From a virus (Duplodnaviria; Caudoviricetes), in IMG/VR virus record IMGVR_UViG_3300037455_000173, positions 32,001-96,000 of that record: DNA of 64,000 nucleotides; one strand, 5' to 3'. Position 1 is the stretch's first letter. Each line of letters opens with the position of its first letter. Shown here in pieces: positions 55,221-55,364 of this stretch. A program made the position numbers and the translations under genes. The notes beneath the pieces are model-generated. The model was given only the letters and a program-made list of their open reading frames with translations. It was not told where the DNA came from and made no database searches.

Positions 55221-55276
55221 TGAATGACCTTCTTTCTGATAAAATAATTGGCGAGTCTATCTAGCATCAACTCGCC

Positions 55277-55298
55277 AGGAGTACTTAGGAGGTCCCCT
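55277..55298 (-). ncRNA. Hairpin displaying anti-RBS loop ACCUCCUAAGUA
   Basis: AGGGG-ACCTCCTAAGTA-CTCCT; loop complementary to RBS of nine early genes. Confidence 0.6.
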
Positions 55299-55364
55299 AT
55301 ATGATAGAAGACGAAATGGTTGCTAGAAACCGAAAGGATGTTAAGCCCCAGGGCAAAATGGGGC

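Follow-up and report, generated by a model that had tools for sequence, protein, structure and literature searches.

A conserved structured RNA beside a phage tRNA cluster carries a selected sequence complementary to the leaders of early genes

The window analysed here is the whole stretch of 64,000 nucleotides, taken from a virus record of 166.6 kb (positions 32001-96000), and its open reading frames lie nearly all on the minus strand. On that strand a promoter is followed, in order, by a 79-aa gene, tRNA-Gln, tRNA-Glu, a 14-bp hairpin, the minihelix MH1, the RNA element with which this study is concerned, and a DUF6275 gene. The features of the locus are the following (window coordinates throughout):

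56075-56107, minus strand: promoter AACTTCG-N20-TGTTATAAT, at the head of the operon that runs from the 79-aa gene through DUF6275 and onward
55682-55608, minus strand: tRNA-Gln
55548-55474, minus strand: tRNA-Glu
55365-55399, minus strand: MH1, a CCA-ended minihelix recognised from fold and alignment, which abuts the element on its upstream side
54942-55220, minus strand: DUF6275 gene, 92 aa, directly downstream of the element
55301-55375, plus strand: ORF of 24 codons, a rival reading of the locus, not conserved

Downstream of the promoter at 56075-56107, the next one of the same class is at 49882-49914. The window holds 33 promoters of the form AACTTCG-N18-22-TATAAT (7623-63459), all 33 of them on the minus strand, and a promoter-motif scan of the window found none between 56075 and the element that could serve as its own. 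As the operon of the element shares its promoter class with the genes that we describe below as candidate targets, a later timing than that of the targets is not evident. At the other end, a terminator scan did not call H4, the last hairpin of the element, and a U-rich tail follows H4 only in the window and in one relative (G003). An earlier note on this DNA had placed a small RNA downstream of MH1 on the minus strand. A minus-strand RNA with conserved, covarying structure does lie directly 3' of the CCA, but the ends of a discrete small RNA are not evident, with no promoter of its own and an H4 U-tract that is missing in most relatives. The 14-bp hairpin between tRNA-Glu and MH1 (55404-55438, minus strand) is terminator-like according to the scan, yet has a U-poor tail. 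The same operon region also contains counter-defence-like genes (51977-53679 and 58273-59151, minus strand), namely a Tad3-like protein (PF25185), a NADAR-domain protein and an orphan MazF/PemK-like protein with a long C-terminal extension. Elsewhere in the window, a 1004-aa protein (480-3494, minus strand) contains an intein with an HNH endonuclease insert.

The element itself occupies about 125 nt of the minus strand, from 55364 to approximately 55240, as a tRNA/minihelix trailer that runs into the 5' leader of DUF6275. Its parts, all on the minus strand and given from 5' to 3', are:

55345-55364, minus strand: hairpin H1, immediately 3' of the CCA, variable in sequence but with its stem kept in relatives
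55332-55339, minus strand: 5' pyrimidine tract AUCCUUUC, near-invariant, predicted to pair with the downstream SD (pairing P1)
55318-55331, minus strand: H2, stem GGUU/AACC with the invariant loop UCUAGC
55292-55312, minus strand: H3, stem GUCUUCUAU/AUAGGGGAC with two U.G pairs, loop with CAU at 55301-55303
55279-55294, minus strand: anti-leader GACCUCCUAAGUACUC, the single-stranded linker between H3 and H4
55249-55277, minus strand: H4, whose covarying stem has 8 bp and whose 13-nt loop holds GAUGCUAGAUA
55227-55236, minus strand: SD region of DUF6275, GAAAGAAGGU, the 3' strand of the predicted P1

The 127-nt RNA folds with a z-score of -3.1, and in both its MFE and its centroid structure AUAGGGGAC pairs with GUCUUCUAU and CUCCUAAGUACUCC is left unpaired before the terminal H4; MFE folds predict the linker to be unpaired in the relatives as well as in the window. 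Because RNAalifold, given the 13 element sequences described below, returned only a long-range pairing of UCUAGC with GCUAGA, we scored a hand-drawn H2/H3/H4 structure. On alignment A1 this structure gave 82.8% paired cells, compared with 36-51% when the partners were slid, and seven pairs were changed on both sides, a number reached by 2 of 500 shuffles, with the counts lowered by MAFFT, which mis-registers the 5' arm of H4 by one column in four sequences. H2 and H4 are intact in 13 of 13 copies, the stems of H2, H3 and H4 all covary, and H4 keeps across the copies a covarying stem of 6-8 bp and a loop of 12-13 nt, in which GAUGCUAGAUA occurs with one change in the 13 copies. Furthermore, U.G pairs are found in H2 (in the G001 type), in H3 (two, in the window) and in H4 (in G002 and clade B); on the plus strand they would be A.C mismatches, which identifies the minus strand as the functional one. 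The loop of H2, UCUAGC (55318-55331), complements the loop of H4, GCUAGA (55249-55277), over 6-7 nt, which suggests a loop-loop contact, either a kissing loop or a pseudoknot; since both loops hardly vary, covariation does not bear on it. The earlier note had drawn the anti-leader as the loop of a hairpin with an AGGGG/CUCCU stem. The folds give H3 in its place, and the flanks in the relatives cannot form that stem. What stands of the proposal is that the anti-leader is displayed, being predicted to be unpaired, but in the H3-H4 linker and not in a hairpin loop. Taken as a whole, the evidence gives good support to a conserved structured RNA on the minus strand that belongs to an undescribed family.

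We reached the relatives of this phage through the promoter motif, which led to a clade of uncultured IMG/VR phage contigs of about 115-165 kb, six of which contain the region. Further copies came from a scan anchored on protein and from two pattern scans, which brought the total to 13 distinct element sequences, and every one of these copies has a tRNA, or else a tRNA-like CCA end or minihelix, on its upstream side. It is by no means a general companion of DUF6275: 443 DUF6275 loci were found in viral contigs, and among the 80 best the element is present in seven, all from this clade. In L191 a different gene lies downstream of it. Searches of Rfam gave only tRNAs at the gathering threshold across the whole window and nothing relevant at E values up to 10 for 55150-55480, while a DNA search and one protein search of INPHARED phages gave no close relatives, and a looser pattern scan of bacterial genomes gave 0 matches to the element. 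Two IMG/VR matches from looser scans (L177 and L178) were rejected as unrelated coding sequence.

What sets the linker apart is its complementarity to the leaders of early genes. Counted over the whole 166.6-kb genome, as the earlier note had proposed, GAGTACTTAGGAGGT occurs on the plus strand a single time, at 55279-55293, and twice on the minus strand; minus-strand copies number 3 for AGTACTTAGGAGG, 5 for GTACTTAGGAGG, 9 for TACTTAGGAGG and 11 for ACTTAGGAGG, and each of these sequences, from the 15-mer down to the shorter forms, has exactly one plus-strand copy, at 55.28 kb. The one plus-strand copy of GTACTTAGGAGG is at 55281-55292, and 100 shuffles gave 0 occurrences. Every minus-strand copy lies 7-9 nt 5' of an ATG and about 45 nt past a promoter with TGTTATAAT or TGTTATAATATAGGTACA. 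In this way nine early genes are headed by a complement of the anti-leader of at least 12 nt and 11 by one of at least 10 nt, all between 36 and 48 kb:

36073-36084, minus strand: target leader of a MAKKNV gene, 15-nt match
37376-37387, minus strand: target leader, 12-nt match
38657-38668, minus strand: target leader, 12-nt match
38884-38895, minus strand: target leader, 13-nt match
41645-41656, minus strand: target leader, 13-nt match
42836-42847, minus strand: target leader of a MAKKNV gene, 15-nt match
45026-45037, minus strand: target leader, 12-nt match
45696-45706, minus strand: target leader, 11-nt match
46272-46282, minus strand: target leader CACUUAGGAGGU, 11-nt match
46738-46749, minus strand: target leader, 12-nt match
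47715-47726, minus strand: target leader UACUUAGGAGGU of a MAKKNV gene, 14-nt match

The target coordinates and match lengths reported in the earlier note are thus correct (nine 12-mers, from 36073 to 47715), two further 11-nt matches, at 45696 and 46272, are added, and its confinement of the targets to the early module agrees with the genome-wide count, which found copies at 36-48 kb only. The CAU that it had read as an anti-AUG at initiation-site spacing is likewise present (55301-55303), 8 nt from CCUCC. When duplex energies with the linker were computed genome-wide, on SD-like sites only, the early leaders took ranks 2-10 among 2035 such sites, with energies between -26 and -30 kcal/mol, where the mean was -12.0 (sd 3.7). 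The linker matches the early leaders over 12-15 nt, compared with 5-7 nt for the local SD of DUF6275. The complementarity to early leaders is real and far beyond chance.

The target leaders have structure of their own. Among the genes behind the 33 promoters of the window, the leader ACUUAGGAGG is used by 11 promoter-proximal genes only, all at 36-48 kb, and the early leaders tend to self-complementarity around the SD (mean stem of 2.20 pairs, a value reached by 0 of 2000 shuffles, which gave 1.85 ± 0.09). Their predicted fold, N-UACUU[AGG]AGGUA-N', partly masks the SD (for example at 36060-36100, 42823-42863 and 47703-47743, minus strand), and its closing pair covaries across the leaders of seven genomes, as G-C, C-G, U-A or A-U. 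An anti-leader would therefore meet an SD that is held in and around a hairpin loop. These hairpins also qualify the view that the UACUU extension is a phage-specific address for an antisense RNA: the extension does give specificity for early leaders in the duplex ranking, but its place in a covarying hairpin in cis explains it as well, and the argument from the address is weakened to that extent.

Comparison of the relatives tells us which parts of the element have been kept. The window and seven clade-A sequences agree at 12 of 12 positions of the 12-mer GACCUCCUAAGU, although the flanks of the linker differ. In the adjacent DUF6275 gene, comparison of the window with clade A gives a dS that exceeds 2.7 or cannot be computed, which amounts to saturation; since the 12-mer is invariant next to saturated synonymous sites, the anti-leader is under purifying selection. 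The 5' tract and the loops of H2 and H4 are more conserved still. In clade B (G004, L187 and L189) and in L191, the anti-SD and the CAU are missing from an RNA that still has its 5' tract, H2 and H4, from which it follows that the core function of the RNA is independent of the anti-leader. In G003 the linker has one change, from U to A (CCUCCAAAGU), whereas the leaders of that genome are still ACUUAGGAGG, so the change is uncompensated. The covariation between linker and leaders for which the earlier note had suggested looking was accordingly not found, the leaders being invariant across the genomes. At the level of presence and absence, 7 of 7 leader-bearing genomes have at least one sense-strand copy of the anti-leader. 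Three more distant relatives (G006, G008 and G009, reached via L029, L008 and L011) share the TGTTATAATATAGGTACA promoter motif and have no RNA element. As CTTAGGAGGT is absent from both strands of these three genomes, leader and anti-leader are absent together.

When we searched the relatives for the leader in inverted form elsewhere, a second anti-leader site emerged. Four genomes, G002, G003, G004 and G005, have the exact 12-mer GACCUCCUAAGU on the early-sense strand, within the 3'UTR of an early gene of the MAKK family, 15 nt past the stop codon and 9 nt before the terminator. The two locations that concern us are:

L141:13948-14032 (in G004): second anti-leader site, 3'UTR of a MAKK-family early gene
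35488-35497, minus strand (window): UACCUCCUUA, in the 3'UTR (35461-35510) of the MAKKNV gene 35511-36065, directly before the terminator hairpin

In its predicted fold, the 12-mer gives a 7-nt loop, CUCCUAA, on a 4-bp hairpin. In the four genomes, a stretch of 27 nt is invariant here, compared with a dS of 0.3-1.7 and an omega of 0.04-0.19 for the coding sequence upstream. An antisense ORF at this site was rejected as coding (omega 2-5). Clade B, which has no copy in the tRNA-trailer element, retains the one in the 3'UTR. The second site is independent of, and non-homologous to, the tRNA-trailer element, and the window sequence UACCUCCUUA, in the homologous 3'UTR, is a diverged counterpart of the 3'UTR hairpin of the relatives.

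Pairing in trans with the early leaders is the simplest account of the selection on the anti-leader. Starting from the established structure, strand, conservation and complementarity of this RNA, we consider a trans-acting repression of early-gene translation to be its best reading, with a chance of being right that we place near even; we infer stable expression, pairing in vivo and repression. In such a mechanism, tRNA-type processing would release the RNA element from the operon transcript, and the exposed H3-H4 linker, GACCUCCUAAGU(ACUC), would pair in trans with leaders such as UACUUAGGAGGU of the 9-11 promoter-proximal early genes. These leaders being small hairpins that hold the SD, pairing would cover the SD and block binding of the 30S subunit, which would damp or shut off the translation of early genes, and the repression would depend on the linker sequence CCUCCUAAGU. 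The interpretation offered in the earlier note thus keeps its conserved RNA, its accessible anti-leader, which is also under selection, and its low opinion of the ORF alternative; covariation with the leaders and universality did not hold up, and a discrete RNA and the silencing of early genes stay putative.

A different role for the same RNA, which we regard as rather unlikely, would be that of a cis-regulatory leader of the DUF6275 operon, in which an H2/H3/H4 junction closed by P1 would sequester the SD in response to a ligand, a protein or temperature, and in which the anti-SD linker would be part of the local switch or incidental to it. The 5' tract AUCCUUUC (AUCUCUU in G003) pairs with the SD GAAAGGA (AGGAGAU in G003) in 8 of the 13 MFE folds, with variation at P1 that is consistent but not clearly compensatory, and the MFE fold of L184 has the local SD paired to the linker itself. 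The 5' tract and the H2 and H4 loops, moreover, outlast the anti-leader in clade B and L191, and a 3' end before the DUF6275 gene is not evident. The distribution of the element, however, is uncoupled from DUF6275, as seen in the 7 of the 80 best of 443 loci and in the other downstream gene of L191, and Rfam returned no riboswitch or leader family. The UAAGU(AC) part of the linker has no local partner and is nonetheless conserved across saturated divergence, the linker matches the early leaders over a longer stretch than the local SD, and such a switch would leave the second site in the 3'UTR unexplained. Control in cis would in any case be compatible with pairing in trans, the two not being exclusive.

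The plus strand offers another explanation, one that we find improbable, namely a translation start made of a leader, an SD and the ATG of a micro-ORF; this ORF has 24 aa in the window and reads MA[GN]EDxx[AV]ARNRKDV... in relatives. The spacing between GGAGG and ATG is optimal (7-8 nt), the window, clade A and G003 all keep ATG(GCT), the clade-A sequences resemble one another in their first 15 residues, and clade B has lost the anti-SD and the CAU together. Against this, the ORF has five codons in G003, is absent from clade B and L191, and elsewhere ranges from 16 to more than 37 aa with unrelated C-termini. Its apparently conserved residues are the nucleotides of H2 and H3, which are invariant at all codon positions and persist where the ORF is gone, and the G.U pairs fit the minus sense only. 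As for expression, in the relatives the plus strand carries a TATAAT some 41 nt upstream, but these are weak -10-like matches only; the window has a sigma-70-like site matching at 9 of 12 positions, and none of its 33 phage-type promoters is on the plus strand, in agreement with the earlier note, which had seen no evident plus-strand promoter. For the corresponding antisense ORF of the second site, omega is, as given above, that of a non-coding frame.

It is decidedly improbable that the motif is a relic or structural filler, the inverted 5' end of an early gene captured in a tRNA trailer and with no present function of its own. The order of features read in the plus sense (a -10-like element, a hairpin, GAGTACTTAGGAGGT, 8 nt and ATGGCT) does resemble the start of a MAKKNV gene, and the motif has decayed in clade B, but a relic would hardly stay invariant between the window and clade A while the flanks diverged and neighbouring synonymous sites became saturated, and the non-homologous second site keeps the same 12-mer. 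Finally, a mimic or sponge of the 16S rRNA 3' tail, whose tracts UCCUUUC and ACCUCCU (together resembling the canonical ACCUCCUUUC tail) would titrate SD-bearing RNAs in general or an anti-SD-binding factor, has 114 minus-strand AGGAGG sites in the genome to act upon and is highly improbable, given that the conserved UAAGU extension confers specificity for early leaders and that the similarity to rRNA does not go beyond 7 nt.

Repression of early leaders by pairing in trans would have parallels in known systems, none of which is the same, and we do not claim membership in any known RNA family. Proteins, such as RegA and RegB of T4, account for most of what is known of the temporal shut-off of early genes in large virulent phages. 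The RsaE/RoxS type of small RNA in Firmicutes pairs with the SD of many mRNAs through exposed pyrimidine-rich seeds. These RNAs are bacterial, have short UCCC seeds in loops and possess their own promoter and terminator, unlike the element described here, which is phage-encoded, lies in a tRNA trailer/mRNA leader, matches its candidate targets over 12-15 nt and has no sequence homology to them. In mRNAs of the icaR type of S. aureus, an anti-SD motif in the 3'UTR pairs with the SD. The second site of the relatives is alike in presenting CUCCUAA in the loop of a 3'UTR hairpin and unlike in that, in G002, the leader of the same gene matches over 7-8 nt, compared with 12 nt for other early leaders. 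The c4 antisense RNA of phages P1 and P7 pairs with a ribosome-binding region and acts on one operon (icd-ant) in lysogenic immunity. It is a phage antisense RNA that the tRNA-processing machinery cuts from a longer transcript, as would be the case for the element, and its precursor is a substrate of RNase P (Hartmann et al. 1995, cited in PMC4919922). The element of the window differs from it in having 9-11 dispersed targets, in belonging to a large phage of lytic type, in its architecture and in giving no Rfam match to C4. To our knowledge, small RNAs of phage tRNA clusters have been without an assigned function since the 1970s, and we know of no report of a multi-target anti-leader among them. 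The band C and D RNAs of T4 and sRNA2 of PAK_P3 are small non-coding RNAs that lie between or beside phage tRNA genes, with function unknown (PMC4933390). We considered PAK_P3 sRNA2 as a close analogue with an anti-RBS sequence and rejected it, as it carries a T-loop-like 11-mer and not an anti-SD (PMC4933390). In its proposed logic of one phage regulator acting on many early initiation regions, the system resembles T4 RegA, which competes with the ribosome at the initiation regions of about 30 early and middle mRNAs (PMC3014915). RegA is a 122-aa protein that acts on A+U-rich unstructured sites, whereas the element would act as an RNA that recognises one shared leader of 12 nt by Watson-Crick pairing.

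In conclusion, our analysis adds a structured RNA motif absent from Rfam and gives an RNA of a tRNA cluster a testable function, with a seed of 12 nt and 9-11 targets that share a hairpin leader. The clade-B element, which has no seed, provides a natural negative control, and the second seed-bearing hairpin provides an independent case. A tentative extension, which we would not yet call probable, is that early-gene shut-off in this clade is RNA-only and RegA-like in its logic, with two unrelated, redundantly encoded sense-strand RNAs that would be processed in the manner of tRNAs and would occlude the RBSs of 9-11 genes. If the repression proposed here is true, a single antisense RNA would let the phage coordinate a whole class of genes.
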